The translations under genes were made by a program, and so were the position numbers. 64,000 nt of DNA from Octopus vulgaris (taxonomy: Eukaryota), in the NCBI GenBank assembly GCA_951406725.2, contig OX597815.1:171678001-171742000 (forward strand), in the 5' to 3' direction. Below are positions 39,651 through 64,000 of this stretch, in pieces; position 1 is the first letter of the stretch; every line of letters begins with the position of its first letter. The notes beneath the pieces are model-generated. The model saw nothing but the letters and a program-made list of their open reading frames with translations. It was not told where the DNA came from and made no database searches.

Positions 39651-41133
39651 GATTGAGTTGATGAACATAGAAAGGGCTTTCTCAGATTGATTGATCACAG
39701 CATGTAAAATTGTGCATTTAGTGAGTAATCAGCCAAATAAGAAGAAACTAATGAATTAATATTTTTATGAATTTTTATTTATAACCGAGGTTCATGGATT
39801 ACTGTGGAAAACGTATTTCTTTTGAAGAGGATCTTAGCAATAGCATGAACATTGTCATTAAAGATATTTCCAAGGAATACTGAGAAGAGATAATTATAAT
39901 AGTTTTGTTTTAAAACAACAATACTTATAATAGTCCAATTTTGAAACAACAACACGACTGATGACTAGGAATTTCATAATGCGTTTTTCTTATAGAAACA
40001 GTAAGAAAGCTGTATGTTTATCTAATGTAACACCAAGATTTTTTTTACCTCACAAGAGATAATTATATCAGTGTCATTAAAACGGATGTAATTAATAATG
40101 AATTCTCTCTTCTGATTTTATAGGGTTTTGTTTGAAATATTAATCATTAATTTACATATTAATGTTTAAGACAGTATAGGACATTGAGACATCTAAATGA
40201 ATATTATATATATTGGAAGCATATACATATAATGTGTATGTTATATTATGGATTTTTGCTGTGCATGTGTGTGTACATGTGTATATAGGTACACACATAT
40301 ACATCACACACAATTTATGTGTACAATACATAATTTTTTTAACATTGTGCATGTGTGTGTGCATGTGCATGCATGCATGTCTGTGTTCAAACACTGGAAA
40401 TATATTTGAATTTGCAGATCTTGATGGGAAGTGTTTTTTATTTTAAAGGTAGATTTAAAATAACCTGAATTGAAAGCCTGGTGAGCATTTGTATAACCAT
40501 GTGCATCGAAACAAAATTGAAAATAAATTGCATTACAGGGATGTAAACAAACCAACACCAGTTGTCAAATGGTGGTTGGGGGAGACAGATACCAAGACAC
40601 ACACACACACACATATATATATATTCAACAGGCTTCTTTCAATTTCTGTCTAATAAATCTACTCACAAATCTTTGTTTGGTCCAGGGCCTTAGAAGACAC
40701 TTGCCTAAGGTGCCACACAGTAGAACTGAACCCAGAACCATGTGGTTGAGAAGCAAACTTCTTATCACACAGCTATTTACCCAAACTGACTAAAATCAAT
40801 AATGACTAAATAAAGGAATATGGAAAAGTTTGAATATTTAGAAATTTCGGTAATGCTATAAATTAAAACCACATTATGAGGAAAAGAAAGGTAGCAAACT
40901 GGCAAAATCATAATAATGTCAGTAAAATGCGTTGTGATATTTCTTCTGGCATATTAGATTCTGAGTTCAAATTCTGCCAAAGTCAGCTTTGTCATTCATC
41001 CTTTCAGGGTCAATAAAATAACTACAAGTCCAGTATTGGGGTCGATGTAATCAACTTTTCCACTTCCCTTCAGAATTTCTGGTCTTGTGCCAAAATTAAA
41101 AAGAATTATAAAGAAAGAAAATTTTAATTTTAC

Positions 41134-42552: not shown

Positions 42553-42653
42553 CAAAGGTATAAAATTTTAGGTCTCTTTATAATTTCATTGAATTTATGT
42601 TTTGGAATCAAATTTTATAGTTTCCAAAATAAAGCGACGCTTCCAATACTTAC

Positions 42654-42857
42654 GCACAGCAGCAAAACAGCAACACCATTCATGTCTGGTCAATTTGGAA
42701 TCATGGTTTCGGTCACAGGAATCCATAAATGGCTCCACACAAGGTTCCATTTGATTGTTTTCAATCTTAGATAGTTCTTTCTTGGTTATATGTTTGTCAC
42801 CATCAAAATCCAAGCGTTTGAACTCCCAGATAATTGAACGAACACAATGACATTTAC
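42654..42857 (-). CDS. Testican-like gene exon: EC domain EF-hand pair
   Basis: tttag acceptor and C|gtaagt donor. KCHCVRSIIWEFKRLDFDGDKHITKKE...EPCVEPFMDSCDRNHDSKLTRHEWCCCFAAV contains two canonical EF loops plus the testican EWC-x-CF motif. 204 nt, phase 1/1. Confidence 0.95.
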
Positions 42858-43216
42858 CTAAATAATTAAAGAGAAAAAAGTACTATGAACAGGAAATATA
42901 TATATAAAAAAGAACATTTATCAGAAAAAAGGTGGTAGAAATGACAAAAAGATGAAGCAGAAAATATATGGTAGTCACTTTTCTTGAAATGCCAACAATC
43001 ACTGGTTCATCATTTAACCATTATATTTATTATAGGCTAACACCATTTCTTGCAGACGTGATCCAAACAAATTAGTCAAACTATCTTGTAAATCTATCTT
43101 AGATACAAAAATATAAACCAAACCCATTACAGGTCTTTCACTTTTCCTGACAATATTTCCTCACCCAAGTTAGACTTTTAATGCACATTTCATAAAGCTT
43201 GCCTTTTATTTGAATG

Positions 43217-43673
43217 TGAGCAAAACGCCCCCACCCCCCACCCCCGTCCAATGGACGGTGCTGAGTTGTCAAACATTTAAACCAAATTTTCTCAAAACAA
43301 CTTGTCCGACCATCCTATAGGCCTCCCCTTTGAGAAACACTGATTTAACCTAAAGTGAAAGAAGAAATAAAAATAGACTTTTTTTCTATTCCAAAGAAAA
43401 ACGATTTTATTCACACAAATATGCAACCAAAGAGTTTAAAGTACCAGTAAGTACATCGCAACAGCTGATGTACTTGACCATACAAATGCACGTTCCCACG
43501 GCTTTATCGATTGCATTCTCACCTGGAATCGATTTTTGTAATTTTTTCAAGACTTATACACGCCTTGATACCGTTGGTATCTACATATCAAATTTGAGCG
43601 CAATCGGATGGAAGATGCCCAAGATCCTAGAAGACACATGCACAAACAGACAGAACGGATTTTATATAATAGA
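43217..43673 (-). mobile_element. Non-autonomous Helitron
   Basis: 5' A|TCTATTATATAAAATCCG, subterminal hairpin ccgtccattggacgg, and a CTAG-like end (CTCA). Inverted copy at 59513. Confidence 0.75.
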
Positions 43674-43719
43674 TAATCTATCCACAACAAGTATATATTG
43701 AGTAGTTGAACATATTTAT

Positions 43720-44108
43720 AGGTGCAGGCATGACTGTGGTTAAGATGCTTACTCTGCAACCATGTGGTTTTAGGTTCAGTTCCATGGCGCAGCAACTTTG
43801 GCAAATCTCTTCATCTATGGCCCTGGGCTCAACCAATGTGTGTAAATTTGCTAGAAGGAAACTGTGGAAGCCTGTTGTATATACGTACATGTATGTGTGT
43901 ATGCCTTAGTGTCTGTGTTTGTTCCCCCACCACTTGACAACTAGTGTTGCTTTGTTTATGTCTTTATAACTTAGGAGTATGGCATAGGGATTGATAGAAT
44001 AAATACCACAGTTAAAAATAAACATGGGGGTCAATTTGTTCAACTAAAACCCTTCAAGGTGATGCCCCAGTATGACCACAGTTCAATGACTGAAACAAGT
44101 AAAAGATG
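43720..44108 (+). mobile_element. SINE family A, diverged
   Basis: ggtgcaggcatgactgtggttaag...atgactgaaacaagtaaaagat. Confidence 0.8.
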
Positions 44109-44624
44109 AAAAAATACTTAAGAGGAAGTACTGTATAGAACATAGATACTTAAGGAGAGAAAAAAAGGTACTTTTAGTATAAAGCAGTGTTATTTCACTC
44201 AATAAATAACACTTTACACTTGGGCTAGTGACCCATTCATTCCATCATAATCCCTTAATGTTGCAGCAAATGTAAGGGTTATAGCAGGCATAGCTGAGTG
44301 AAATAAGGTGTTGAAATACTGTAATTTGTTGGTGAATTATCTTTTCCAGCGTGTGGTTTTTGAGATGTTTGGGGTGCTGGACTGTTTGTTGATAAGGAAG
44401 TTTTTGATTGTGCACTGAAATATTTGATAACATTCAATTGGCCCCTGGCTGTTTCAGCACCCAAAATAATGCCATGGATATTTTGAGATGATTCAAAAAT
44501 TTTTAGAAAACAAATACTGGTTGTCTAACCCTAATTTTCAATGAAATAGTGATATTGTATAGTGTAAGTACTTCTTTTTCTTTCAGCTGCCAATAGCTTG
44601 TTCTAAACACAGGTATGGATAGGT

Positions 44625-45120
44625 GAAGGTGTAGCTGTGTGGTAAGAAGCTTGCTTCCCAGCCACATGGTTCTGGGTTCGGTTCCACTGTGTGGCACCTT
44701 GGGCAAGTATTTTCTACTATAGCCTCATATATACATAAACTTGCTTTCCATTCACATCATCCTGGGTTTAGTTCCCCTGTGTGGCATTTGGGCAAGTGTC
44801 TTCTACTATAGCCTCAGGCCAACCAAAGTCTTGTGAGTGGATTTGGTAGACAGAAACTGAAAGAAGTCTGTCACATATATATATGTATATATCTATGTGT
44901 ATGTGTGTGTCTTTCTGTCCAGGTTTGTCCCCCTATTACTGCTTAACAACCAGTGTTGGTGTATTTATGACCCAGTAACTTAGCAGTTTGGCAAAAGAAA
45001 CCAATAGAATATAAATACTAAGCTTAACAAAAAAGAAAAAAAGTACTGGTGTCAATTCATTCAACATAAAATTCTTCAAGGTGATGCCCCAAGATGGCTG
45101 CGGTCTAATGACTAAAAAAA
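44625..45120 (+). mobile_element. SINE family A with duplicated head
   Basis: cttgctt...gtggca...ggcaagt...ctactatagcctca occurs twice, followed by the body. Confidence 0.8.
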
Positions 45121-45183
45121 TGTAAGAAATAAAAGGTAACTAATAGACACCATTAAAATAAACTATGAAAAATTTAAACTTAC

Positions 45184-45387
45184 GTGATTTGTAGAAACTA
45201 TTTAGTTCCTTTTTCACTGAAAAATGGTGCTTGGTTTTGTTAACTGCATGATGTAAATTGTAACTCGGAATCTGATAAACAGGACCATTAACTGTTTTCT
45301 TTCTGCTTTCTTTGAATTTAGCATGAAGAAGCACAAACCATCCAGTCAAACGTTTCATGATATCTTCCAACTGTTCGTGGTCACATT
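45184..45387 (-). CDS. Testican-like gene exon: start of the SPARC-type EC domain
   Basis: gtacag acceptor and C|gtaagt donor. CDHEQLEDIMKRLTGWF matches the EC-domain C-x3-L-x5-RL-x2-WF motif. 204 nt, phase 1/1. Confidence 0.9.
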
Positions 45388-46784
45388 CTGTACAAAGAAC
45401 ATTACAATTAATAGCTGATACACTTTTTACACCTATTTGTTCATTTATTTCATACACAAGTAAAAACAGTGTCAAAATTAATTGATTTGTCTGCAAAATA
45501 TTTGTAGTGAACATTCTGAGTTCAAATTTTGTCATGAACAACACTGACCAATGGCCAGTTCACCCTACTGATTTTAGATTAGGAAGAAATGCTCAGGATG
45601 ATTGTGTATTTCTCAGGCATGTTAATAAGCTTAAAAGAAATGAAATTTCTACAAACAGGAATATAAGCAAAGTAACAGCTTAACTTGCTGGGAGCTTACC
45701 TCAAATTTGTGTCATTGCCAACTCTTATGTATTAAATGTTTCATCATGAAATTTTAGCAATAAAAGTTCAGATACATATCAGTATTTCAGAGATACTTTA
45801 CAAGACTAACTTAATTATTTTTAATTCCATGTATATTGTATTTTCAGTAGAATATTTTCTAATCATCCAACAGCAACATGTTTTCACACACACACACACA
45901 CACACCTATGTACATAATATCATAATTACCCTGAATATTTTAACATCTGTTTTTCTAAGCTTGTTTGAGCTGCACAGATCTGACGTACAACATATGTCTG
46001 CTTTTTCCTCATCTCTTTTGTTGTAGGACCCAACCACCGTAGGTTTGATCTAACTAATTGTTCTCATGTTTTCCTCAATATACATCCTCCACAAAAGCAA
46101 ACAGCACCTAGTACTAATCATCCATTTCCCTTACATGTCCACATCAGCATGAATGTCTTTCCGCATATCTTGGCTCGGTTCTTTTATCATATTACCTAGT
46201 CATTCATTCACCCCACAAATTTAAACTTACACGATCAAATTGCTCATATAAGTTTACATTAAACATTTCACTGACCAACCTCACATCAATGTCCATGGTT
46301 TCACGACCATGATATGCCACATTTCTTATACATGATTCAGGAGGTGCATCTTCTGAGCAAAGAGACCTCCTTGCGTCTATCTTTGTTTAAAACAGGAAAG
46401 ATAAGAACTACATGACTTCTTATTCTTTTTACTTATTCTACCAACTATGGTTTCACTACAACCACCTCCAGGACTGATTAGATTACCCAGAAGCTACAAC
46501 GTGACTCAAAATATATATACTCATGTTTTGAGTTCTTTGTTCTTATGTACCACCAAACCTATGATATACCCACTCTCTTATAAAATATACAAGTGCCTAT
46601 TTTTTCTGACTTGTAGATTCTTAGACAACTAGAGCCCATAATCTTTGCATACCATCCTAAATCAGTGAGATTAATATAATCAATATTCTTCTTAAACTTG
46701 TACCTGTGGCAAAGACATAAACAGGGAAGGAAATCCGGAGGGCTTACATTCCGAGATGGACTGAGCTTAGTGATTAGTGCAGGG

Positions 46785-47066
46785 CAGTGGTTCTGAAATT
46801 GGGTAGTACTCTGCTCCTGGGTGTGGTGGAAAGATCCAGAGTTGCCTTGAAGAAAAGTGAGGTGAAAAAAGAGTGGCCTAAAAGGAGGAAATGGATACAA
46901 AAACAACAAAATAATGGGCCAATTAGATTAAGCTTTATTTGTGAAATACAGTTGTTTTGAGTTTGCAGCAGAAAGTATTCTCTGTTAGTGATGATGAATG
47001 GGGTTTGCTAGGAATGTGGCCAAAGTGCCAAGGGAGCAGTACCCCAAAATAGTTTGGGAGCCACTG
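46785..47066. mobile_element. hAT-like MITE
   Basis: Termini cagtggttctgaaa ... tttgggagccactg. Confidence 0.5.
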
Positions 47067-47561
47067 ATGTAAGGTATAGAGGGACTGGACTCAACAAGGG
47101 TAAACAGTTTGGGACATTTTTCAACTTAAATTTTGATTATATAACTTCTCTTTGTCATGCCATAACCGAACACCTTCAAGACATATCAGTCCCAAACTGA
47201 ACTTCAATTATCAATATATCATACTGTTGATACATCAGATTTGATAAAACTTTCAGAAACAAAAATAAAATAAAACTATACAGGATTATATTTCTTAGAT
47301 ACCTACATTCAGACTCTTGGACAATAGGATATCACTGAATAATGTCTCACTCTCTCTCCCACCCTTTCTCTATCTCTCTCTCCCTTTCTTCTCTCCCATC
47401 TCTCTCTGAGATCACTAAATATCTTTGTAACTCAGTAATCTTTAAGTTCATTTTACATAATTCAGAAACTGCTCTAATTTTCTCAAATTGTTTGCAAAAT
47501 GTTTCCATTTTGGAAAATGGAAAATTATAATATCTTTTTCTCTTCTTAAACCTTCATTTAA

Positions 47562-47767
47562 CCCTTTCAAAACTGCCTCTGGCTCTGTAGTACAAATAAG
47601 TTGTTTTCATAAGTTTTGAATTAAAATCTTCCACCAAACCTTAGTCACAATTTATGTTCCTAACACTAGCCTAATGATAACTAAGTTATTTTACTAAATT
47701 CTTTGTTCTATTTAAAATTAATTGAAAGAAACACAGAGCATCTCAAAATAAATACAGTGATAAAGGG
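47562..47767. mobile_element. piggyBac-type MITE
   Basis: TTAA-CCCTTT...AAAGGG-TTAA. Other piggyBac-like MITEs at about 33625-33851 and 58308-58491. Confidence 0.75.
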
Positions 47768-47969
47768 TTAAGAAGAGAAAAGTTTATGGTAAAAAAATTG
47801 TTCTCACAATAAAGCCAATATCCCTATTGTAACATGCACCATCTCTGGGTTATTTTTTTTTTTTTCAAGAAGCTTTAAATAGTTATACCCTGAAACGGAA
47901 AGAATTCTAATAAAAGAAAACTAAAATTTGGAGCTCATAAATGAATAATAAATTATAAATTATTCTTAC

Positions 47970-48021
47970 CATAATTTTTATGTGGTTTTTTGTGCATTTT
48001 GTTGCCCTTTCTAAGTGACAT
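47970..48021 (-). CDS. Testican-like gene exon: short basic segment
   Basis: ttttgtag acceptor, MSLRKGNKMHKKPHKNY(E), G|gtaag donor. Phase 0/1 bridges the two neighbouring exons exactly. Confidence 0.75.
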
Positions 48022-48407
48022 CTACAAAAGAAGGAAGGAATGAGTGAGATAAATGAGAAAGATAGCCAAAGAATTTCTGAAAAACATGTTTATATATAAC
48101 CAAGCTTATCTCTATCTTCCATTAGACAAAGCAGTTAAGTGATAAATCTTCCTTCTTATAAACCACTTTCACCACAGGAAAATTTGCAGTTATCACTACA
48201 AGGACTTTCTCAGTATAAAGGTAGAGGCATGGCTATGGGGTTAAGAAATTAGCATCCCAAACACATGGTTTTGGGTTCAGTCCTACTGTGTGACACTTTG
48301 GGGCAAGTGTTTTGTAATGTAGCCCCAAGCCAGCCAAAGCCCTGTGGTGAGTGGATTTGTTAGACAGAAACTGAAAGAAGGCCATCATTCATTTATGTAT
48401 GTATGTA

Positions 48408-48452
<45 letters not shown>

Positions 48453-49965
48453 TTGTGTGTGCACTTGCATGTGTGTATGTGTGCATGCATACATATGTAC
48501 ATATATATATATATGTATGTATGTATGAATAGATGGACAGACAGATGTGTGTGTGTATGTATATGCTTGAGTATGTGTATGTGTTTGTCTCTCTTTTTGC
48601 TGTCACATGATAGTTTTAAACAGATGTCACCATCATACAAGTAGAGTCAATCATTTCCAATATTCTGTGAAAATATGTCTGGCCATAGAAAACCTGCATT
48701 AATAAACTCCAACCCATGAAAGTATGGACAAGTGAATGTTAAAACAATGATGAAGATGTTGATGATACAGCAGTATATAGATTATGCAAAGCATGAGTCT
48801 TAAATCTATATAGACTCATCCATTAGAGTTAAAGAAGATTGGCTACTGACACAATGCTGTACATGTAATACATAATATGAACGGCCAACCTTTCAGCAGA
48901 ATGCCTGTTTCCCTATTGAACTGTATTCCCTCTCAGATAAACCCTGTCAAACAGAACAACAAAGTAAGTAATAATGATTAAACAAGTTCTCATAAATCTG
49001 CAGTAGCAGCATGAGCGCTTGTGAACTTTAGCTGTCCACATTGTAGATTTTTACTCTTGACTGCCCATTTTGATTCATTGCGTGATGGTTAGACCCATTT
49101 AGTTTTACTTGGACCACCAACATCTTTAACGTGATGGACTGGCCTGGTTTCTATTTGTCAATTATAAAAGGGGAAGTTCTGACTCGTTAAGTCCCAAGGA
49201 AGGAGAGTTATGTTACAAGTGACCAGGGACTTTGACGTGAAAACAATTTTGATTTCAATTTGCAGTTTAAACAGATTTCAAGCCAGAATCTTTGAAGTTA
49301 AGCTTAGCATTATACCAGCCTTTGAATAGAAGTGACCAGAATTATTGTGACACTGTATTCAGGTTTTTTTTTAAACCTCTATTCTACATTTTGATGAACA
49401 TTTAAATATTTATAATGTTTTAACAATTGAAATGTCTACCAGTTTGCTTTATAAAATTTCTGCAGTTGCAATGAATGTTTCCTTGCATTTATTGTATTTT
49501 GTCTCTGAATTCATTTATTATTATTAAGGTGGTAAGCTGGCAGAATCGTTAGCACACTGGGAGAAATGCTTAGTGGTATTTCATCCGCTGAGGTCGACTT
49601 TGCCTTTCATCCTTTCTGGGTCACTTAAATAAGTACTAGTTACGCACTGGGGTCAATGTAATTGACTTAATCCCTTTCTCCAAATTCGAGGCCTTGTGCT
49701 TCCAGTAGAAAGGATAATTATCCATCTTCAATTCATTTAACAGACCTTACTGCAATTCATACATCCACATACATACTATACTGCTTTAAATATAACAATT
49801 CTTGTAGTCGATAAATTAAGTACCACTTACGTACTGGGGTCGATCTAATCGACTGACCCCCTCCGCAAAACTTTTGGGCATTGTGCCTAGAGTAGGAAAA
49901 AATATATATATATTCACGATCAGTTACAAGTGAGCAGATTTATATCAACTTACAAAATAGCTAAC

Positions 49966-50281
49966 CAAGTTGGTATGGTGACCCCTTGCTGGCAAAATTA
50001 CAGATTTTGAATCATTCTGAGGTTTGTTATTGCTGTATACCTCAGAATCATTTGTCTGATTAAGATCATCCTTCATCATATCAGACTCAAGTTCATCTTG
50101 AGAATTTTCATCATCATATGACATCCCCTCCTCATTGGTATTGAAATAAGGAAACACATGATTGCTAGACAACTCCAGTTTCTTCTCAGTTGGCAAGTTA
50201 TTTCTTCGTGGACTTTCATCAACAGCCAAGCTATTCAACTGAAGGTTATTGGTTGCTTGGAGACGTTTCAAAAAGGTTAAA
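49966..50281 (-). CDS. Testican-like gene exon: acidic linker
   Basis: tttcag acceptor at 50282-83; open frame (S)LTFLKRLQ...EEGMSYDDENSQDELESD...RGHHTNL. Donor gttagc at 49965, with an alternative in-frame gtaagt giving an end at 49954. Phase 2/0. Confidence 0.8.
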
Positions 50282-50976
50282 CTGAAACAAGTTTTAAAGT
50301 AGAATTTTTTTTATTATTATTCCATTCAATAACACTGAGTTTATTGAATATAAAACATTTAACTTCAAATAAATTATATACACATTTTGTAAGCAAATTG
50401 AAAATATACATATATCACAAAAAAAAATATATAAATATATGTTCACCAGCACCGCATGTGAGCATTAGGAGTACATGTGTGTATGTATAAATGTATGCAT
50501 GTATGTACATACACATGTATGTGCAAATGTATGCATGTATGTATATGTGCATGACTTAACTTTTATTTCAGTTATTTGAATGTTTGTGTTTGTGTGTGAG
50601 TACACATACACACATATGCATAATACTTGCTCACATATACATATAGATATACATATGCTTATATTATGGGCTTTCCCATCGTTGGACAATGTATGAGGGT
50701 TCTGAAATTTCTTGCTGATCAACTACACAGACGATTTGTTTATAGTAATCAAATGTTTGTGTACACATAAGCTCACTCCCTCAATCAAATCGTCAGAACA
50801 TGTACAGGTACATGATGTGTCACATGTCAGATGAAAAGATGATTGCAGAGAAATGTGAAATGAAGTGTTTTGCTCAAGAATACAACACAACACCCATTCT
50901 TGGAATCAAAACCTTGATCTCGCAAGGATGACTGCAACACCCAAACCACCATGCCCCTTCACATGCATATATATTA

Positions 50977-51021
<45 letters not shown>

Positions 51022-51994
51022 TGCATATGCATAACACATGCACACATATATATAGATACACGTATGCATATATATATGCATATAAATACATATGTAAGTG
51101 TATGTATTTCTTCCTGGATTCTCATCAACACCTAAGCTATTCAGCAGCAAGTTATTGCTTATATGGCTCTATTGCTGCTTGCCACCTTCGTGACTTGATG
51201 ATATTATAACAACTATATCTACCAATTTACTGGCACCAACCACCTCTTATATCCATACTGGGACAGTGACATTAATGTAACAATAATCTTTGTCATCATC
51301 ATCATCGTTTAATGTCCACTTTCCATGCTAGCATGGGTTGAACGATTTGACTTAGGACTGGTGAACCAGATGGCTGCACCAGATCCCAATCTAATCTTGC
51401 AGAGTTTCTACAGCTGAATGCCCTTCCTAACACCAACCATTCTGAGAGTGTAGTGAGTGCTTTTATGTGCCACCGGCACGAGGGCCAGACAGGCGGTACT
51501 GGCAACAGCCACGCTCAAATGGTGTTTTTTACGTGCCACCTGCACAGGAGCCAGTCCAGTGGCACTGGCAACGACCCCGTTCAAATGATTTTTCATGTGC
51601 CACCGGCACAAGCGCCAGTAAGGCGTCACTGATAATGATCTCGCTCGAATGGTGCTTTTTACATGTCATTATTTAGTGAATGAGTGAGTTTGGTGCAGTT
51701 GATCTCATTTAGGGCTCTTGCTGTGATGTTAGTTCATTTGTGATCTTATTGCAAAGATTATTGACATATTGTATGAACATATTGATATCTACACCAAACA
51801 GATTTTTTAAAATTATGTTCTGCAAGAGTATACTGGAAAGTTGTAGTCTTCTGAATTCTAAACTAATGTTGTAGTTAGTCCTAACCTAGGAACTTTGGGC
51901 AGTGTGTGGTGATTCAATTCAGGGATTTATACAGCTTCTAAGGAAAATGATTAGTACCAGTTCTTATAAGATCTTTCAGCAGTCTAGGTCTGAA

Positions 51995-52320
51995 CTGACA
52001 CTCCATCGGTTATGACAATGAGGGTTCCAGTTGATCTAGTCAACGGAACAGCCTGCTCGTGAAATTAACATGCATGTGGCTAATCACTCCACAGACACAT
52101 GTACCCTTAAAGTAGTTCTCAAGGAGATTCAGCATGACACAGAGTGTGACAAGGCTGGCCCTTTGAAATACAGGAACTACTCATTTTTGCCAGCTGAGAG
52201 GACTGGAGCAATGTGAAATAATATGTCTTACTCAAGGACACAATGCATCACCGGAAATTGAACTCACAACATTGTGATTGTGAGCTGAATATCCTATCCA
52301 CTAAGTTATGTGTCTTCACA
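51995..52320 (-). mobile_element. Another tRNA/CORE-like SINE family
   Basis: Minus strand shows a tagtgg...gagttcaattt head and gtgtccttgagtaagaca core. Related fragments at about 31620-31760, 50700-50960 and 53900-54040. Confidence 0.6.
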
Positions 52321-52363
52321 GGTCTGACCTTCCAGCTAGAGTAATTGCAAAATTATTTTATAG

Positions 52364-52786
52364 AGGCGCAGGAGTGGCTGTGTGGTAAGTAGATTGCTTA
52401 CCAACCACATGGTTCCGGGTTCAGTCCCACGGCGTGGCACCTTGGGCAAGTGTCTTCTACTATAGCCTCAGGCTGAGCAAAGCCTTGTGAATGGATTTGG
52501 TAGACGGAAACTAAAAGAAGCCTGTCGTATATATGTATATGTATATATGTATGTGTGTGTATATGTTTGTGTGTCTGTGTTTGCCCCCCCCCCCCCCCCG
52601 ACATTGCTTGACAACTGATGCTGGTGTGTTTACATCCCCGTAACTTAGCGGTTCAGCAAAAGAGGCCGATAGAATAATTACTAGGCTTACAAACAATAAG
52701 TCCTAGGATCGATTTGCTCGACTAAAGGTGGTGCTCCAGCATGGCCACGGTCAAATGACTGAAACAAGTAAAAGAGTAAAAGAGTA
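52364..52786 (+). mobile_element. SINE family A, full copy
   Basis: ggcgcaggagtggctgtgtggtaag...tgactgaaacaagtaaaagagtaaaagagt. Confidence 0.9.
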
Positions 52787-54773
52787 ATAAACCAATTCAT
52801 CAATCTGAATGGCAGTGACCATTCTCACACGTATACTCCTCTCTGGAATACCAGCAGGAATACTGCATTGTCATACATGTATACAAGGCTGTAAAAAGTG
52901 TGAAGCCAGAAGTCAGGGAATCTTATTGTGCAACCATTCTCTTGTTTCCTTTCTCTCTAATGTCAAAGTGTAGAGCATAGTCTTCAACAGCATGCATGCA
53001 TATGAACATGCAGAGGTACATACACACAAACTTACAGACATGCATATGCATACAATTGAAGATTTTAGCTCCACACTTTGGCATTAGACAGAAAGGAAAC
53101 AAAAGAATGAGAGATTCATTAAGCCTCCTCACTGACTTATTTCTTCACAATCTTGCATTGCAACACTAGCGACAACTGGGCATTTCATGACCTACAATTA
53201 TATAACTACTGTCTAAAAAGGTTAAAAAAACATAACCAGTGCTAAATGAGGCTTTTAAAGTACATCTGGATATAATAATTTCTAGAATTGTGGAAAGCTG
53301 TCTGCAAAAGGTTACAACTGAGATAAATGAGCTTCTACCAACTCATCAACCTGCCAGTTAACAATGTTCAATAAAAAAATAAAACAACCAGCAATGTGGT
53401 AAGAAGATTGCTTCCTAACCATATGATTCTGGGTTCAGTCCCACTGTTTGGCACTTTGAGCAAAAATCTGTCATGCATGCATGTCTGTGTGTGTGTGTGT
53501 GTGTATGCATATAGTTATGTGTTTGTGTCATTATGTTGCTCTCCGCACCCACTTGACAACTGGTGTTGGTTTGTTTACATCTCCATAACTTAGCAATCTG
53601 ACAAAAAGAGACCAATAGAATAAGTACCGGGACTTTAAAAAATTAGTACTGGGGTCAATTTGTTCAACTAAAACCTTCAAGGTGGTGCCCTTGCAAGGCC
53701 ACATCTGAAAGACTGAAACAAGTAAAAGATAACCATCACTCACAAGCAAACATAACCTTCTGGCATAGACCATGCTTTTGTTAATTGTTTTCATGAGCCT
53801 ATGTAGTCATGAGCACAAACAGACACTCGTTTAGCCCTTTCACCTAACAGCCACCAGAACATCAAGGATGTGACAGCTGAAGTGAGAGAGAATCAGAGGG
53901 CTGCACCAAGGCTCATTTCCAGCTGAGTAAACTGGAGCATTATGAAATGAAGCACCTAACTCAATGAGACAATTGCTGTTCAGTGCAGGAAGGAGTAAAA
54001 CCCACAACCTTAAAATCATAGACCCAATACTCTATCCACTAGAGAAAGCATACAGAGAAAAAAAAAACTTTGCTCCCAACATATCCATAAGAATAATATA
54101 TAAAAGCTAGAGAAGTCAGCACTGAATACAGATTATAAATATAGACTTGGTATAATATCTGAAATGAGAGGTCGACTTTGCCTTTCATCCCTTTCAGGGT
54201 AGATAAGTTAAGTACCAGTTGTATACTGTGATCGATCTAATCGACTGCCACCCCCCACCCCCTCCCCAAAAATTTCAGGCCTTGTGCCTAGAGTAGAAAA
54301 GAATATCTGAAAGGAAAAAAATATCACACACATAAACATATATCAAATCAAAATCTTGTCACATTCTATGGATCCATAGGACTCGCATGATCTCAAACCA
54401 GATGAACTTTGTTAGATCAGCAGTTTCATAAGTAGTCTCTCTGTCTGTCTGTTTGTCTGTCTATCTGTCTCTCTCGTTTATTTTTGCAAGGAATTCAATT
54501 CAATACTCAATGAAATAGTTGTATAGTCTTTCCCATTGCGTTTATTAGCTTCTATAGAGTTAAAACCCTTAGGAAGTATATGTACCTTTTTTAAGAGCAA
54601 TGCTCAGCTGGAAAAAGCAAATAAAAAAATACCTACAAAGCTGTGAAATAGAAAAGCTGCTCGTTATTCAGGTAGATTGAGACAGGCAGTATTTAGTCAA
54701 CAGGTCTACTAGTTCACTAAATAGCTTTTGTAAAACTTGATCACATGACCATATGGTAATATTCAAACTGCTT

Positions 54774-54986
54774 AAGGCAGTGAGCTGGCAGAATCATTAA
54801 CACACCAGGTAATATGTTTAGCAGCATTTTGTCTGTCTTCACATTCTGAGTTCAAATTTCCCCGAGATCAACTTCACCTTTTATTCTTTTGGGATTGATA
54901 AAATAAGTACCTGCTAATCACTGGGGTCAATGTAATCAACTCATTCCTTCCCCCAAATTGCTGGCCTTGTGCCAAAATGTGAAATC
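54774..54986 (+). mobile_element. Family B SINE with 16-bp TSD
   Basis: TSD aatattcaaactgctt at 54758-54773 and 54987-55002. Confidence 0.85.
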
Positions 54987-55072
54987 AATATTCAAACTGC
55001 TTCATTTTCCTCCCAACTGTACTTCCCTTGAAGATTGAAAATCATAAAAATTCTCCTTCTTTTCTTACCTAC

Positions 55073-55160
55073 CTGTCTTTAGACTGTGGTTTCTCAATAC
55101 AATGATTTCCTTGTGCATTCTCAAAACAGATATGAAATTTTTGACAGCCATTAGGACAAT
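55073..55160 (-). CDS. Testican/SPOCK-like gene, first visible coding exon (N-terminal Cys-rich FOLN-like motif)
   Basis: Polypyrimidine tract plus tgtag acceptor, and AG|gtagg donor. Encodes (D)CPNGCQKFHICFENAQGNHCIEKPQSKD(S), with C-x3-C-x5-C-x8-C spacing like the testican N-terminal motif. Phase 1/2 fits the next exon. Confidence 0.8.
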
Positions 55161-55394
55161 CTACAGGGAAAAAGAAAATATTAATTTTCACAAAAGAAAA
55201 ACATTACAAAACTGATTTACAATACATACACACATACACACACACCTCATAGTTTCAGGTTCAGACCTATTCTGGGACACTTTAGGGAAGTGGTATTTTT
55301 TGCAGCCCTAAGCCAATCAAAGCTTTGTAAGTGGAATTCGTAGAAGGAAGGTGAAAGAAGCTTGACCACATGACCATATGGTAATATTCAAACT

Positions 55395-55626
55395 AGGCAG
55401 CGAGCTGGCAGAAACGTTAGCACGCCAGGCAAAATGCTTTGCGATATTTCGTCAGCCGTTACGTTCTGAGTTCAAATTCCACCGAGGTCGACTTTGCCTT
55501 TCATCCTTTCGGGGTTGATATATTAAGTACCAGTTACACACTTGGGTCGACGTACTTGACTTAATCCATTTGTCTGTCCTTGTTTGTCCCCTCTGTGTTT
55601 AGCCCCTTGTGGGTAGTAAAGAAATA
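55395..55626 (+). mobile_element. Family B SINE with 15-bp TSD
   Basis: TSD ggtaatattcaaact at 55380-55394 and 55627-55641. Confidence 0.85.
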
Positions 55627-56713
55627 GGTAATATTCAAACTGCTTGAGGTGGTGAGCTGGCAGAATCATTAGCATGCCAAGCAATATGTTTAGCAGCATT
55701 TCATTCATCCTTGCATTCTGAGTTCAAATTTCACCATAGTCAACTTTACCTTTCATCATTTCGGATGTGTGTGTGTGTGTTGTGCCTCCTTGTCTTAAAA
55801 TGTGATAGCGGTAAATTAGTGTCACCTTAATACAACCAATGTTACTCATTTCTAATCTTCTGTGAAAAGATGTCTAGCCATGGGGAAATATTGCCTTACT
55901 TGGAAACATGTGTGAATTAGCAACAGTAAGAGCATCAGCTGTAGAAATCTGCCACAACAAATTTGATTTGATTTATGCATGCATGGAAAAATGGATATTA
56001 AAACGATACTGATGATACACACACATCTTGAATTATGCTTACATTTGTGTATATAAATGTATGTGTGAATAAATATCTATGAACATGTATCATATTATAT
56101 TATGAGTGCTATCATATTATGGGTGCTACATTATGATTAACTGAATATTAAATAAAAAGAGGGGAAAAAATCCAACATGTTTCACAAAATAATTTTCAAA
56201 TCTTTCAATAGCAATAAATCAACTGTAAGAATTTCCAAAAAACGACCTGTGATAAACAAAAATTGTTTCAAAAGGATTCAATAGTATAGTTTGCAAAATA
56301 TTCTCTGAAGAACAAGTTAGCACCCTCTTTAATAAAAACCATTATATCAAAGTTTAATTAGTGTGATTTTTCATCAAAATTTAATTAGTGTTATTTTTCA
56401 ATATATAAATAATGTGAAGAGATGTAATATTCAGTTCATTTCCAAGTGTATTCACAATTAAAACCATGTTACTCATAGTCTAATTCATTGAGAGGATTTA
56501 CTATTATACTATTTTACCCATAACTCTGAATAAAAGTAGATAAATGGAAGGGGTCTCTTTATTCCACCCTATAAAGAAAGAAAGAAAAAAAAGAAAAACT
56601 TAAAAATTTTCTAGAGCTGGTGTCAGAATAAAGCTCACCAAGTCCATGCTGTATATTGGTAGGGCATCCAGGTATTACAGAATGCATAACTGGTTTTATG
56701 ATACACATAACAT

Positions 56714-56893
56714 AGGCACAGGAGTGGCTGTGTGGTAAGTAGCTTGCTTACCAACCACATGGTTCCAGGTTCAGTCTCACTGCGTGGCACCTTGGGCTAG
56801 TGTCTTCTACTATAGCTTCAGGCCGACCAAAGCCTTGAGAGTGGATTTGGTAGACGGAAATTAAAAGAAGCCCATTGTATATATGTATATATA

Positions 56894-56934
<41 letters not shown>

Positions 56935-57145
56935 TTGTGTGTCTATGTTTGTCCCCCAACATCGCTTGACAACTGATGCTGGTGTGTTTACGTCCCCGTC
57001 ACTTAACGGTTCGGCAAAAGTGACCGATAGAATAAGTACTAGGCTTACAAAGAATAAGTCCTGGTGTCAATTTCTTTGACTAAAGGTGGTGCTCCAGCAT
57101 GGCCACAGTCAAATGACTGAAACAAGTAAAAGAGTAAAAAGAGTA
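56714..57145 (+). mobile_element. SINE family A, full copy
   Basis: Same head, body and tail as the copy at 52364. Confidence 0.9.
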
Positions 57146-58164
57146 AGAGAGAATTGTTTCTGCGTGTGTCACAGTAAGTGGCAAAATGCTTGGATATCCA
57201 AGACATCATGGAAAAAGAAAAAACTCTTTGATGATGATGATGCTGGTGGAGATGGGGAATATGATGATGATGATGAGGGTTTGAGTTATTCTAAGTCGAC
57301 TGAACAAAAAGACCACTGTTCAATAAAGGACTCAATCCCTTAATAAATGCAAAGTGTATATTCATGATTATTGACCTTACAAGCATGGAGACTGATTCAA
57401 CGTGTCACAACAATCTTTCCAGAAGTGAACTCTGAAGAGACTATGGGGTCACATTAAAACAGTTTGCATGCTGCAACATCAATACCATGAATGTATATGT
57501 GTGTGTGTGTGTGTGTGCGCCTGAAGACTGGAAACCAATAACTTCAACAGCCACACAAATTCAGCCTTGAATAAATATTCTTCTAATTTACTTAACAACA
57601 GCAAATACTTTCACTCTTAACTACAATTCACAACAGTGGGAAACTATCATACACTATATAAATACATTACAGACAGACAGATACGCATAGACAAATGCAC
57701 AAATGTGTGTGTTCTTATTTATATCCATTTTTCAATACAAGCTTGGGCTAGATACATATATTATTGATGCATTATTTTACAGCTGGGTGTCCTTCTTGTC
57801 ACTACCCTTACCTGTTTTTCAAGTTAAGGGATACTGAATTCCATATATTTTCAAAGTTGTAAAGTCAGCAGGTGGTCTGTTGACAATGTAAATGACAGCA
57901 ATATCAACGCCCACAGCTGAGCAAATTTCAGAAAAGTGAAAATACACAAACACTGGTGCAGACACAACTGAAGGTGGGAGATTCACCTCCCAGCTACTTG
58001 GTTTTTTCCAGTTAGGCCCCAGTGTGTGGTACCTTGGACAGATGTTTTCTATTGAGGCCCTGGGCTAACCGGGACCCTGTGAGCTGAATTAGTAAACAGA
58101 GGCTGTGTATATAAGTGTGTGTGTGTCATTATCTTGACATGGATTGATAGTTTTAACTCTAGTA

Positions 58165-58305
58165 TTAGGTTGTCCCAAAAGTTCGTAAACACTTGCGAAA
58201 ATTGAATTTTTACTCGCCAAGTACTAACAAAAACAACAAAAATTATTCCTCAAAATAAAGACCATTATTTTCCAAGACTTTCTACGAACTTTTGGGACAA
58301 CCTTA
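58165..58305. mobile_element. Tc1/mariner-type MITE
   Basis: TIRs aggttgtcccaaaagttcgta / tacgaacttttgggacaacct, with TA flanks. Confidence 0.85.
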
Positions 58306-59479
58306 TATTTAAACTGGCCATATCCAGCTCAAATATTCAAATGTTCAGACCAGCCAGATCTGGCCTCTCACACCTAGCCTATGATGTCATTTGGAAAGTA
58401 TAAAGCTATGAGAAAATACAGGATTAATTCCAAACAATGTGAATAAATAAACATTACATTTGACAGAGTAATCTGAATGCTAAAGGGTTAAATGAGGGTC
58501 GCTGTCACACAAGCAGTGTCATTTATTTCTAATATTCTGAGAAAACATATCTGGCCATGGAGAAATATTACCTTGCTCGGAAACAAATGAGTGGTGGCAA
58601 GAGTGGTGGCTTATAGAAAATCTGCTTCAATGAATTCCCATCCACTTTTCCATGCCTGTATGGGTCAAACAAGAATTTGTTGGGGCAAATTTTCTTCAAC
58701 TGGTTGCTCTTCCTCATACCAGCCCTTGCCTCTGTATAGAACATTGTAAATGACAACACTGCTTGTATAACAGTGACAATCATTTTCAACATACACAATG
58801 TAAAGGCAAAGAAACACAAACACACACACATATATTTACACATACATACATACACGCATGCACACACACACACATACACATATGTGCTACCAACATGCTG
58901 TGTTGCTAGTATCCATGCTGTGGAACAGATAAGTACCTAAATAACTTATTTGACCAAACTGCTTGCCAGAACTCAACAATAAATATCAGGTCTTCATATT
59001 GACACACCAAACTTGACATAGTTTATCAGAGAAGCAAGAAAACAACCATCTGCTAAAAATTTCCCTCATTTTGAAAGAAGTCTTATCGCAAAATGCTTTT
59101 TATATTTTCCTTTTTTTTCTTTAATTTTCTTAATGTCCCTATTTGTTGGAATACAATGTGTCACCTCTTTCCTTGCAGACAAAAAGAAGTTTATTTCTAT
59201 TATGCTTCTATGCACTGAGTATATGAAGATTAATTTATTTTTCTTAGAATTCACACTGCAAAAAGTCATCATCATTGTCATTTTTAACATCCACTTTTCC
59301 ACGCTTGCATTGGTTGGGCAGAATTTATTGTGACAACCGTTTCCAAGTAACATAATATTTCCCCATAACCAGATAAACTTTTATAGAATATTGGAAATGA
59401 AGGACATCACATGCATTATGGCGACACTCATTTACAACTATAACATGGTGTCAAGACAAGGAGAAATTAAATAAGACAA

Positions 59480-59512
<33 letters not shown>

Positions 59513-59513
<1 letters not shown>

Positions 59514-59872
59514 CTATTATATAAAATCCATTCTGTCTGTCTGTGTGTGTCTTCTAGGATCTCGGGCATCCTCTATCCGATTGCGCTCAAATTTGATGTG
59601 TAGATACCGACAGTATCAGGGCGTGTATAAGTCTTGAAAAAATTACCAAAATCGATACCAGGTGAGAATGCGATCGATAAAGCCGTTTTTCTTTGGAATA
59701 GAAAAAAGTCTATCTTTATTTCTTCTTTTGCTGGTGTCTCAAATTTAGATTAAATAAATCAGTGTTTCTCAAAGGGGAGGCCTATGGGATGGTCAGACAT
59801 GTTGTTTTGAGAAAATTTGGTTTAAATGTTTGACAACTCAGTACCATCCATTGGACGGGGGCATTTTGCTCG
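59513..59872 (+). mobile_element. Non-autonomous Helitron (internally deleted sibling)
   Basis: A|TCTATTATATAAAATCC start, ccatccattggacgg hairpin, CTCG|T end, no TSD. Confidence 0.75.
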
Positions 59873-60281
59873 TATATATGTATATATATTCCATCTGCCA
59901 AATCCACTCACAAGGCTTTGGTTGGCCTGAGGTTATAGTAGAAGACATTTGCCCAAGGTGCCACATAGTAAAATTGAATCTGGAATCATGTAGTTAAAAA
60001 GCAAAACTTCTTACCACACAGCCACACCCAGCATATTTGATTTTCTACTTATTTTTTTTCATTTTCAATAAGTGGCATTTAATTCCTTACTGAAATATCT
60101 GTCAGTTAAGTTATCATATTCCTGCTATGCACTTTCACAGTTTAAATTAAACCCATTATAACAAATCTTTTAAATTTAGTCAATTAACTGTTGAAACTCA
60201 TCTCTGATGTTTCTCCAGAAACAGAAGGTATTGCTTATGAACTTCAGCTCTTTTATAATATACACACATACACACATACAC

Positions 60282-60312
<31 letters not shown>

Positions 60313-60322
60313 TACACATATA

Positions 60323-61130
60323 CATAGGGGGTACCCAAAAGAGACCGGAATTTTGCAATATTATTTTATTCACTTAGTTTTACATGTGTACTATTTTATT
60401 GCCTTCAAAGTATTCTCCGTTTGAAGCAATGCATCAGTCCAGATGCATTTTCCACTATTCAAAGCAGTCTTGGAACTCTTGAAAAATGATGCCTTTTAAT
60501 GCCTCCATCATTTTTTCTTCAACCCCTTCCACAACTGCAAATTTCATAGCACCAGCTTTCATCACCAGTGATGACCTTCAAAAAGAAAGTCCACATCAAT
60601 TTCTAACTGCTAATTCAGTTCACGACAAGCATTCAGTTGTGACACCTTTTGATCTTCCATGACCAAGTGAGGCACAAATTTTGCTGCAACTCTTTACATC
60701 CACAATTCCTTACTCAAAGTTCGTTGGCAGGAGATGCAGGACACACCAGTCATATCAACAAGTTCATCAATTGCTCAGTGATGGTGCTCCAAGATCAGTT
60801 CAAGATGTTTTCATTTGTTCAGGAGGTCAACGGTTGTCCTGAATGAGGTTGGTCTTCCAGCAACAAATGACCATTACTTAAATATGAAAACCACTCATAA
60901 ACTTGTGCTTTACTCATAACAGCATCCATGTAAGTTGATTGAATCATCGCAACTGTTTTGGCCACCATTTTCCCCAGGAGAAAACAGAATTTCATGGAAG
61001 CATGCTGTTCCTTCATTTCAGCCATTACAAAAATCGATGAACTGGGGAAAAACATGGCAAAATAAAGATGCACCATTATGGTAGTACAACCTCATTGGAT
61101 GCCACAGGTTGGCAGACTGATGCCTGAGGG
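60323..61130 (-). mobile_element. Degenerate mariner transposase remnant
   Basis: MKEQHASMKFCFLLGK...AQVYEWF...LEDQPHSGQPLTS (mariner N-terminal HTH); ITGDESWC downstream; TIR-like end at about 60323. Confidence 0.85.
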
Positions 61131-61650
61131 TTGAATCAAGTGGCTTCTAATGGTGAAAGCCCTCATCGTTTGTTTTAACTGTTTTGTTCTCATTGTTCTA
61201 TCTTTTACTGTTTTTACTTTTTTATTGTTTTTACTGTTTTGTTCTTACTGTCCTGTTCTTGTTACCACTTTTACCCTCCACAAAAAATCCCAAATTTTAT
61301 TTAATTTGCTTTGCGAGAAGGACTGTTTCAATGAAGTCGCATCTTGTCCTTACTTTCGGAATGTGGAGTAGATGAAACAGGGACAACTTAAGAAGGGGAA
61401 TATTCCTTATGTTGTATGTCTCGTTTCTCTGTTTCTTTCGTTGTTTGAAAAAAAGTTCGTTTCTATGTTTTTGTTTTTAAGTTTATGTACATACCTACAT
61501 ATATATGTATATATACATGCATATATGGGTACAGGACATCAAAAAAACCTTGACCACAATGAGAAACGAATATATAAAATATATTTTTTTAAACATATAA
61601 CTAGATCACAAAAAGTATAAAAATGAATAATCAATGTATAAGTAAAACAA

Positions 61651-61751
61651 AACTACATACGTTTCATGGCTATAATTAAATTCGAATTACAACTAAATTT
61701 GAATTTAATCGAAAATTAATTCAATTTAAAATTATAGTCATTCTTCAGGTT
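61651..61751 (-). ncRNA. Type I hammerhead ribozyme motif (Penelope/retrozyme type)
   Basis: Minus strand reads AAC-CUGAAGA-AUGACUAUAAU...AUUAUAGCCAU-GAAAC-GUAU-GUA-GUU. The core is intact and helix III (ACGUAUGU) is self-complementary. Confidence 0.75.
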
Positions 61752-62524
61752 AACAATAATAGTTAAATAAATAAGTGAATGGAGTTTATATTTATTAAAA
61801 AAAAAATAAATAAAATAATAATTTTTCTTCTAGAAGAAACTCCATTAAGTAAATTTGAAATTTAAAACATTAGGATCCGTTTCCTACAATAAATTTATTA
61901 TCTTAAATATTTAAGGTTAAAAAAATACAGTAAATAGATAGAAAAATGTATTTATCTGTCAAGATATAATTTAGCTTAATAAAAAACATTAATAGACTAT
62001 AGAATATCTTTAATCTAGTTATACTCTAATACTTAATTATCAAACTATTTTACAAAACAATCACACTTAATATTGTTAAATTTTAGTTCGTATATAATAA
62101 TAAAATTATAAATAAAAAAAAATAAGTATCTAAATTATAATCAACAAATATAGTAATTAAAAATCTATATTTTTCTATCAATAAACATATAAACAATAAA
62201 TAAATTAGTCCATTATTACTTACATAAATATTACATATATCTTAGAAAATATTTATGAAATACAAAATAAGAACTGAAAAATTCCAAAGTAAAAACGTAT
62301 AATCTATCTTTATAGAATACTTATGATTACTATTGTTATTAAATGTAATAACACTAGAAATATGATACGACTTGAAATATAATTAGAAACTTATAGTTCA
62401 ATTAAAACATTTTTACGATCTAGATCCCAAAGTGACTAACGAATATCTTAAAATTTACATTCAAATATAATAATTATAAAATAATCATAATTAAATAAAT
62501 GTACATATCTAAATTACCATTAAC

Positions 62525-62541
62525 ATATATGTATATATATT

Positions 62542-62622
<81 letters not shown>

Positions 62623-62669
62623 TTGTGTGTGTGTGTGTATATATATATGTGTGTATATATAAGTATATT

Positions 62670-62702
<33 letters not shown>

Positions 62703-62731
62703 GTGTGTGTATATATATGTGTATATATATA

Positions 62732-62792
<61 letters not shown>

Positions 62793-62803
62793 ATATATAT
62801 ATG

Positions 62804-62846
<43 letters not shown>
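62525..62846. repeat. Compound (TA)n/(TG)n/(TAA)n microsatellite
   Basis: Seen directly; lies between the two hammerhead motifs. Confidence 0.95.
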
Positions 62847-62913
62847 TGAGGGAATATTATTCCAAACTTACAGGAAAAAATTGAATTTAGAAATACTAAA
62901 TCAAATTTCACAA

Positions 62914-62953
<40 letters not shown>

Positions 62954-63101
62954 AACACCTTTTATCAATTCAATAATGAAAAATTAAATTATACCATTTA
63001 GAAAAATTACATATTATAGAAAGATTAAATATAAGATAAAACATATTACAATGATTAAGTAATATGCAAAATAGTAAATAAAACGTATATATTTGGTAGA
63101 A

Positions 63102-63196
63102 TAACGACACGTGTTCCATGGCTATATTGAAGAATTGATAATAGTAATATTAATAGTAAAATCACTTCAATATAAATATAGCCACTCTTCAGGTTA
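63102..63196 (-). ncRNA. Type I hammerhead ribozyme motif with one core substitution
   Basis: Minus strand reads UAAC-CUGAAGA-GUGGCUAUA...UAUAGCCAU-GGAAC-ACGU-GUC-GUUA. Helix III is the palindrome ACACGUGU; GAAA is changed to GGAA. Confidence 0.7.
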
Positions 63197-63692
63197 AAGT
63201 TGAAAACAATAAAATAGTTAATTAGATAAATTAATAAATATATGTAAATGATCTTATAAAATACGAAATATCTTAATATATTCTTGTTTAAATAAAAAAA
63301 AATAGAATAAAAATAAGATACAATTAATTAAAATATTTAAAACAAATATATATATATAAGTAAAATACCAAATATACATTAAATTAAATTATTAATTAAT
63401 TTATTTATTTAATAAACTTCTAAATAAAATCTTATATTCATTAAGTAATATATAGTAAGCACCTTAATGTTAAGTAATATACATAATGTTAGTACAAGCT
63501 ATAAATATTAGAATTAATGATAGGAAAAGGTTTAAATATATACACACCTATTAGATAAACTAACTATATTATTAATATATATGTAGAATATATAGATTTA
63601 ATATTTTACTCAATTATATAGTTGACAAAAATATCAATTAATATTAAACTAATTTACATAAATGTAATATTAAACTAATTTACATGAATGTA

Positions 63693-63752
63693 ATATTATT
63701 TAATAGTTGGTTGGTCTATTTATTAATAGACCAACCAACTATGAAATAATAT
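63693..63752. repeat. 28-bp inverted repeat (hairpin)
   Basis: atagttggttggtctatt-tatt-aatagaccaaccaactat is a perfect 18-bp stem, extended by 9 bp after one mismatch. Confidence 0.95.
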
Positions 63753-64000
63753 ATTGTCTCACAAAACTAATTCTCAAATTAAATTATATATAATTCGTTA
63801 AATCGCATTATAAAATTAATGATAATTATCATAAAACATAAAACATAATAAATATATAGATATATATATCGTAACTAATAATTATCAAGAAATTATATAT
63901 AAATTAATATTTTAACAACAATAATAATCATAATAATAATCAAACTTAATACAGTTTAAGAGTTAAATAATATTGTTAAATATAAAACGTTACTTAGCTT

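Follow-up and report, generated by a model that had tools for sequence, protein, structure and literature searches.

The window, a stretch of 64,000 nucleotides, contains two type I hammerhead ribozymes, motifs A and B, which are recognised from their sequences and lie on the minus strand within an AT-rich block. Each has a greatly expanded helix II. With moderate confidence they can be placed near the 3′ ends of two related, separate ORF-less insertions of Penelope-like element (PLE) type, which share an orientation and are piled up in a TA-rich microsatellite. Motif B, together with some 850 nt on its upstream side, is part of a multi-copy family present in the sequencing runs of two organisms. 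The 1.45-kb circular RNA proposed for this locus in a first-pass annotation is not supported.

Anatomy and detection of the hammerhead motifs

Both motifs were found by direct reading and by a descriptor scan of the two strands of the window with a helix II of up to 150 nt, which gave two matches, these two only; the descriptor was composed after the motifs had been seen. Reading and scan confirm the positions first assigned to them, as two type I hammerheads on the same (minus) strand with cuts 1452 nt apart. The features of the block are as follows.

61480..61525, no strand: degenerate TA-rich tract, from the sequence; putative target or 3′ boundary of the B segment
61526..61653, minus: B tail, 128 nt after the cut, ending at the TA-rich tract; from contigs and sequence
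61651..61751, minus: hammerhead motif B, type I, predicted cut 61654/61653; helix I strand AAC 61751-61749, CTGAAGA 61748-61742, helix II domain 61741-61666, GAAA 61665-61662, helix III near-palindrome ACGTATGT 61662-61655, A17 61654, GTT 61653-61651
61752..62524, minus: AT-rich ORF-less body upstream of motif B, a member of the multi-copy family
62525..62846, no strand: (AT)/(AC) and (ATT)14 microsatellite block; putative 5′ boundary of the B segment
62847..62913, no strand: AT-rich island of 67 nt between the microsatellites, from the sequence
62914..62946, no strand: (AT)17 tract; putative 3′ boundary of the A segment
62947..63105, minus: A tail, 159 nt after the cut, with no significant similarity to the B tail
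63102..63196, minus: hammerhead motif A, type I, predicted cut 63106/63105; helix I strand TAAC 63196-63193, CTGAAGA 63192-63186, helix II domain 63185-63118, GGAA 63117-63114, palindrome ACACGTGT 63114-63107, C17 63106, GTTA 63105-63102
63197..64000, running off the window, minus: AT-rich ORF-less body upstream of motif A, from sequence and reading frames

In each motif three helices surround the core, with helix I open and helix III consisting of 2 bp or of a dimer duplex. Helix I has 4 bp in A and 3 bp in B. The earlier concern that this is too short can be set aside, since 3-bp helices I occur in the minimal hammerheads (min-HHR) described for metazoan PLEs in PMC4209133. The helix II domain has a conserved base of 9-11 bp that carries a long extension, with one A.C mismatch near the base in motif B. 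The expansion had been correctly recognised; the lengths are 68 nt in A and 76 nt in B rather than the 70-75 nt first given, and the inner parts of the two helices, which had been described as different in sequence, can be aligned. Overall the motifs have 78 identities in 106 alignment columns. The CUGANGA and GAAA core with a U16.1-H17 cut site is present in motif B, that is, in one of the two motifs, as motif A has GGAA, the core change (A13G) already reported in one copy. Changes at A13 impair hammerhead cleavage. The section on natural hammerhead core variants in PMC3088659 does not include A13G.

Neither motif is detected by Rfam: 58000-64000 gives 35 matches with E up to 10, none of them to a hammerhead model, and the matches listed are microRNA models driven by the microsatellites, below the gathering score. 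The long helix II is the likely cause. The published core search of PMC8557442 limited the distance between the half-cores to 17 nt, so that motifs with a helix II of 68-76 nt escape this search as well as Rfam, and hammerhead censuses may undercount them.

The pair of motifs is beyond chance. At least two descriptor matches occurred in none of 200 block-shuffled windows and in none of 5000 shuffles of the AT-rich block, and at least one match in 6/200 and 1/5000, respectively. The helix II hairpins are stable (z -3.9 and -3.8; 0/200 shuffles equally stable). The whole motifs fold at z -2.2 and -2.0 only, the minimum-energy monomer fold lacks the junction, and the monomeric active folds of the two motifs lie 4.2 and 5.8 kcal/mol above the minimum. 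Such costly monomeric folds are expected of hammerheads with a 2-bp helix III, which act as dimers (PMC4209133; PMC7229834; PMC6765202, in the parts that treat them).

Covariation between A and B is thin. Over the 25 pairs predicted in A, 19 are the same in B, 3 have changed on one side, 1 is compensatory, 1 broken and 1 gapped; eight of the 25 are also predicted in the fold of motif B itself, and RNAalifold, given the two motifs aligned with MAFFT, did not recover the helices. Folds in sliding windows stay close to z 0 outside the motifs, the microsatellites and a hairpin at 63693-63752. This hairpin, in the body upstream of motif A, is long and near-perfect with an 18-bp core (z -9.9), and is adjoined by a 26-nt tandem duplication (63639-63698).

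Helix III palindromes

Helix III is formed by an 8-nt palindrome that differs in sequence between the motifs. The palindromic character first ascribed to it is perfect in A and approximate in B at this locus, and perfect in most of the family copies of B that were compared (see below). The homodimer duplex of helix III is predicted at -10.3 kcal/mol for A and -6.2 kcal/mol for the locus allele of B, against -3.2 kcal/mol for the A/B heterodimer. With the family allele at 61657, motif B reaches -9.8 kcal/mol as a homodimer and -3.6 kcal/mol with A. These palindromes and strong homodimer duplexes lend predicted support to the proposal of PLE-type dimer hammerheads. As self-pairing is strong and cross-pairing weak, A and B look tuned each to its own kind, and on these duplex energies they would be poor partners for dimerising with each other. 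The helix I strands, judged from sequence, are cross-compatible. Two sister ribozymes with different palindromes offer a natural test of the part played by helix III in partner choice.

Layout of the AT-rich block

The block begins at about 61530, where the G+C content falls abruptly to 16%, and runs past motif A to the end of the window with a uniform AT content to 64000. It is therefore not bounded by the two motifs, as had been claimed. The spacer does contain the microsatellites described earlier, at 62525-62846 and 62914-62946. It was also correctly called ORF-free: none of 12 read-through frames from the two parts outside the microsatellites matches a Pfam family, and no reverse transcriptase (RT) or GIY-YIG remnant adjoins either motif. 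The B segment lies between TA-rich tracts: on the 3′ side of motif B one lies 128 nt beyond the cut, and on the 5′ side stands the microsatellite block. The (AT)17 tract is reached 159 nt after the cut of motif A.

Within the body of the B segment two G+C-richer 9-mers, 61870-61878 and 62422-62430 (minus strand), could pair across 550 nt; family variants at 61877-61878 change one of the two.

The interval between the cuts

The first-pass annotation had taken the two motifs as tandem hammerheads that bound a retrozyme-like unit of about 1.45 kb, to be excised and circularised. The interval from cut to cut is 1452 nt with 16% G+C, and its spacing and strand would permit this, as would the cross-compatible strands of helix I. 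Retrozymes carry a hammerhead in each of their near-identical tandem units, a layout that is absent here. Self-comparison gives no direct or tandem repeat between the A and B sides beyond the motif and about 30 nt upstream (61705-61780 with 63150-63235, 73%). Aligned locally, the two upstream regions reach a score of 391, compared with 345 +/- 17 and a maximum of 398 in shuffles (n=30). The upstream 108 nt are no more alike than shuffles (140/500 as high), nor are the two tails (90/500 as high).

When folded in circular form, the interval slightly exceeds its shuffles in stability (z -2.2, 15 shuffles), as does 61654-62524 (z -2.25, 20 shuffles). The circular fold is branched, with 23 hairpin loops versus 21 in the shuffles, and the helix I of the junction is not formed. 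A rod-like viroid fold was ruled out by this branched and only mildly stable structure. Consensus lengths of up to 972 bp are given for vertebrate non-LTR retrozymes (10.64898/2026.07.22.740005), which would favour a unit of this size; the animal retrozyme circles reported in PMC7229834 are of 170-400 nt. Together with the A13G change, the weak A/B helix III and the behaviour of the family copies at the B cut described below, these points leave excision of a 1452-nt circle very unlikely.

Motif B belongs to a multi-copy family

A search for sequencing runs listed 24, none of them on record as RNA. No run contained half of the sampled words; the best word share was 0.17, and as microsatellite words alone make up 0.11-0.15 of the stretch these shares were not used on their own. 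Contigs of four of the 24 runs were aligned to 61270-62515 at 80% likeness, a stretch that ends short of motif A. Runs X1 and X4 are from organism A and X5 is from organism B; the fourth is X12. X4 and X12 may be RNA runs, and contigs give no information on transcript ends or expression levels.

Contigs cover 29 of 30 bins in X1, X4 and X5, and 20 of 30 in X12. Over the block the pieces from organisms A and B are mostly 85-95% alike, and several distinct contigs are found per site (8 at 61995 and 10 at 62234 in X1). The description as an ORF-less repeat family is thereby borne out for the B segment, by many diverged contigs in both organisms. No contig in the four runs spans the whole of 61270-62515. 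Coverage of the B body reaches the edge of the compared stretch, and one X4 contig has other sequence in place of 61775-61917, so the body differs between copies.

Motif B is hit by five of the 40 variants shown (there are 141 more), and none of these 40 touches CUGAAGA, GAAA or GUA. One of them, at 61657, makes the palindrome of B perfect; this alternative allele accounts for 82 of the 97 depth units in X1 and for the entire depth in X4, X5 and X12. The palindromic helix III is thus kept across copies, being perfect in the allele that dominates all four runs. The four others shown fall in helix II, where three keep or improve a pair and one breaks a pair. For the B segment, then, conservation of the core holds throughout the variants shown and conservation of helix II in most of them. 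Among the 12 indels shown (44 others exist), three lie at motif B: one in the apical loop, one in an internal loop and one immediately outside helix I.

In X1 (61581-61708) and X5 (61597-61700) there are contigs that continue beyond the B cut into the same tail. The loose ends shown near this cut (24, with 231 others) resemble the B tail and not the A tail. Copies that run past the cut into one and the same tail are unexpected for a unit propagated as a 1452-nt circle.

In X4 the end of one contig would coincide with the predicted cut at 61654 if its last four letters were left ungapped; other X4 contigs cross the site. Neither this end nor the missing upstream cover in X12 was counted as evidence.

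Two stretches bordering or overlapping the B tail, 61270-61480 on the plus strand and 61522-61605 on the minus strand, are pieces of a far more abundant repeat, with a summed depth of thousands versus tens to hundreds. Some contigs link 61425/61434 with 61570 on the other strand, so that the B tail may have its last 60-80 nt in common with the 3′ end of the abundant repeat, which may provide a lead to the autonomous partner. On the plus strand at 61381-61420 this repeat, taken with its family allele at 61389, has CUGAAGA, a short hairpin and pairable flanks with no GAAA; by its sequence this is a candidate hammerhead half-core on the strand opposite to motifs A and B.

Two probable insertions of Penelope-like type

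The anatomy of the motifs matches the min-HHR consensus of PLEs given in PMC4209133: a U-rich flank, a 3-bp helix I, CUGANGA, a palindrome and an AU-rich flank. The position of the motifs points the same way. According to the supplement of PMC8557442, hammerheads of the Hydra clade lie on the sense strand 25-350 nt from the 3′ end in 24 elements, at 148 nt or less in 23 of them, and the clade prefers (TA)n targets in 26 of 27 families, one of which is from Octopus bimaculoides. The TA tracts that follow the cuts at this locus at 128 and 159 nt have the layout of such 3′ ends, as measured on the two copies present here. In the same supplement Hydra-1_cRog resembles the motifs in its helix I, its core and the base of its helix II, which carries a short loop. 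PLEs are also described as inserting beside earlier PLE copies (PMC6765202).

Several observations weigh against this reading. The A tail, at 159 nt, is longer than 23 of the 24 Hydra-clade tails in that supplement. No ORF with RT and GIY-YIG domains is present in the block in 12 read-through frames up to 64000, and no pseudo-LTR or partial tandem or inverted copy was found beyond the motif and about 30 nt. The PLE consensus sequences in the supplement of PMC8557442 contain no match for six short motifs of the block and its flank, nor for one of two short motifs taken from the ribozyme itself. Finally, AT content is uniform between about 61530 and 64000, which would fit a single element equally well, and the comparison of contigs covered the B segment.

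Two PLE-type insertions nevertheless give the best explanation. Each family would be transcribed as tandem or co-localised copies. The 8-nt palindromes of helix III would hold two copies of the same ribozyme together, with cleavage after GUA or GUC. An autonomous PLE of Hydra or Neptune type would supply the RT/GIY-YIG protein that reverse-transcribes the processed RNA and inserts it at (TA)n. The bodies of 800-900 nt would be non-autonomous cargo, or the long 3′ UTRs of 5′-truncated PLEs, and the long helix II an expanded hairpin on the conserved base of 9-11 bp. A separate origin of the A and B segments and mobilisation by a PLE protein are likely; we infer both, and the suggested link to such a protein is one of resemblance. 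To judge from their sequences the copies at this locus are probably inactive or slow, given A13G in A, the changed palindrome and stem mismatch in B, and the poor match between A and B as dimer partners.

Of the earlier assignment to a non-autonomous retrozyme or PLE derivative with an expanded helix II, the PLE side is thus retained; the retrozyme unit is not, as no tandem unit exists. The cephalopod origin named there would agree with repeat types that suggest an octopus. PLE hammerheads are well known and their role is still debated. A family of this kind, ORF-less and with a hammerhead at the end of a 1-kb body, would travel with PLEs in SINE-like fashion and would not require the tandem layout of retrozymes.

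Less likely alternatives: one long element or foreign DNA

The two motifs could instead belong to one non-coding retroelement of more than 2.4 kb with several diverged hammerheads in series, Terminon-like, in which the microsatellites have grown and whose transcript is cut into modules. The shared strand, the motif and about 30 nt upstream in common, the uniform AT content to the end of the window and the B-body coverage that continues to the edge of the compared stretch would all agree with this, and Terminons do carry hammerheads at several places (PMC6431247; PMC7761336, as described there). A single element does not account for TA tracts that follow both motifs at 3′-end distances, no ORFs or telomeric repeats are seen in the block, and the replacement of 61775-61917 in the X4 contig indicates a body that varies between copies. 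This arrangement is considered unlikely, while still carrying some weight.

A bolder form of it, which we regard as doubtful, is an undescribed ORF-less retroelement of more than 2.4 kb whose diverged long-helix-II hammerheads each dimerise with their own kind. Its intact copies would cut their RNA into modules, a kilobase circle among them, and the extended helix II would serve as a handle for a PLE RT. If an element with several ribozymes were real, its circle would be far larger than known animal retrozyme circles and its ribozymes would be invisible to Rfam and to published descriptors; an entire class of them may then have gone unnoticed.

AT-rich DNA of foreign or artefactual origin (from an organelle, a parasite, a virus or a mis-assembly) with hammerhead-like words would explain the abrupt drop to 16% G+C, and the long hairpin with its tandem duplication recalls control regions; that no sequencing run has half of the sampled words would also be in keeping. 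It is scarcely probable, as the same runs contain many diverged copies of the block as well as the repeat that flanks it, the motifs are beyond chance, and Rfam gives nothing at gathering level, rRNA included. The motif patterns were found at 0 loci in viral contigs and at 0 loci in metagenome contigs, and blastn against phages gave four short weak matches over 4-7% of the query. A mitochondrial origin was rejected: there is no convincing ORF under table 5 and no Rfam rRNA match.

Comparison with known hammerhead-bearing elements

Under the preferred reading, with two PLE-type ends, the nearest relatives would be the Hydra-clade PLEs of PMC8557442, with which the motifs have in common CUGANGA on the sense strand, a short palindromic helix III, a T-rich flank, a position near the 3′ end and (TA)n. 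The Hydra-clade motifs given there have a helix II domain of about 9-24 nt, in contrast to 68-76 nt here, and the elements consist of an RT-EN ORF with a short 3′ UTR, whereas here a non-coding body of 800-900 nt has no adjoining ORF. With the min-HHR of metazoan PLEs as presented in PMC4209133 the motifs share a helix I of 3-4 bp, U-rich and AU-rich flanks and a dimer-type palindromic helix III. The helix II of min-HHRs has 6-8 bp and is closed by G-C, whereas here it has 9-11 bp plus the long extension and is closed by A-U or G-U. Helix III has one pair more than in min-HHRs, and a tetraloop, as in the newt and axolotl motifs of PMC7229834. Most min-HHRs are described as dispersed single motifs from truncated elements (PMC4209133).

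Animal non-LTR retrozymes are likewise non-coding and AT-rich, carry type I hammerheads and are probably mobilised by PLEs (PMC7229834; 10.64898/2026.07.22.740005). As characterised in these sources they differ in forming tandem near-identical units, with circles of 170-400 nt and a consensus of at most 972 bp, whereas this locus has no unit and its ribozymes have diverged. Bdelloid rotifer Terminons (PMC6431247) share the presence of several hammerheads along one strand; in that account they are telomeric, with ORFs for the Athena RT and, beyond the ribozyme, telomeric repeats, and the block has no ORF or telomeric-type repeat.

A precedent for the expansion of helix II is found in the spike-moss element PLE-X1, whose enlarged loops 2 of 35 and 29 nt are marked as deviating in File S2 of PMC8557442. 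Unlike the A and B segments, PLE-X1 is shown there as G+C-richer, targeted to plant rDNA and provided with ORFs, and its helix II domain is at most about 53 nt. The viral type I hammerheads termed ‘long helix II’ in PMC13725137 have 6-8 bp. Literature searches found no published account of this long-helix-II family; Repbase was outside the search, so a prior description is possible. Motifs A and B are accordingly regarded as an apparently undescribed, PLE-hammerhead-like variant in an ORF-less repeat family.

Host gene and surroundings

As stated in the first-pass annotation, the hammerheads share the strand of a testican gene: a SPARC calcium-binding exon (E 2e-17) lies at 42598-42882 and a thyroglobulin exon (E 4e-18) at 38089-38271, both on the minus strand, and further up there is a weak SPARC piece (E 0.022). 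In 43000-61560, where small exons could escape, neither a Kazal nor a first exon of a testican-type gene was detected, and this makes it plausible that the block lies within an intron of the testican/SPARC-type gene. An acidic exon candidate of this gene, bounded by AG/GT, is seen at 49955-50283 (minus strand).

Use by the host, with an intronic ribozyme pair regulating the testican-type pre-mRNA in the manner of amniote HH9/HH10, could be read into these downstream exons on the same strand and the possibly intronic position. It is nonetheless highly improbable, since the motif belongs to a repeat family, the locus carries degenerate rather than intact alleles, and the weak helices III and I predict little activity of the monomer. 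Cutting of the pre-mRNA is probably rare, as the ribozymes are degenerate and predicted to depend on dimers, and any effect on the host gene is probably small.

Remnants of other mobile elements lie elsewhere in the window, all on the minus strand. A decayed GIY-YIG-like frame at 7714-8115 has no Pfam match and by eye resembles the endonuclease of Hydra-type PLEs (feature score 0.95; family on 12% of members). A C-terminal remnant of a LINE-type reverse transcriptase, also identified by eye with no Pfam match, lies at 38794-39728, and a broken mariner transposase remnant (HTH_48, E 3e-05) at 60603-61244.
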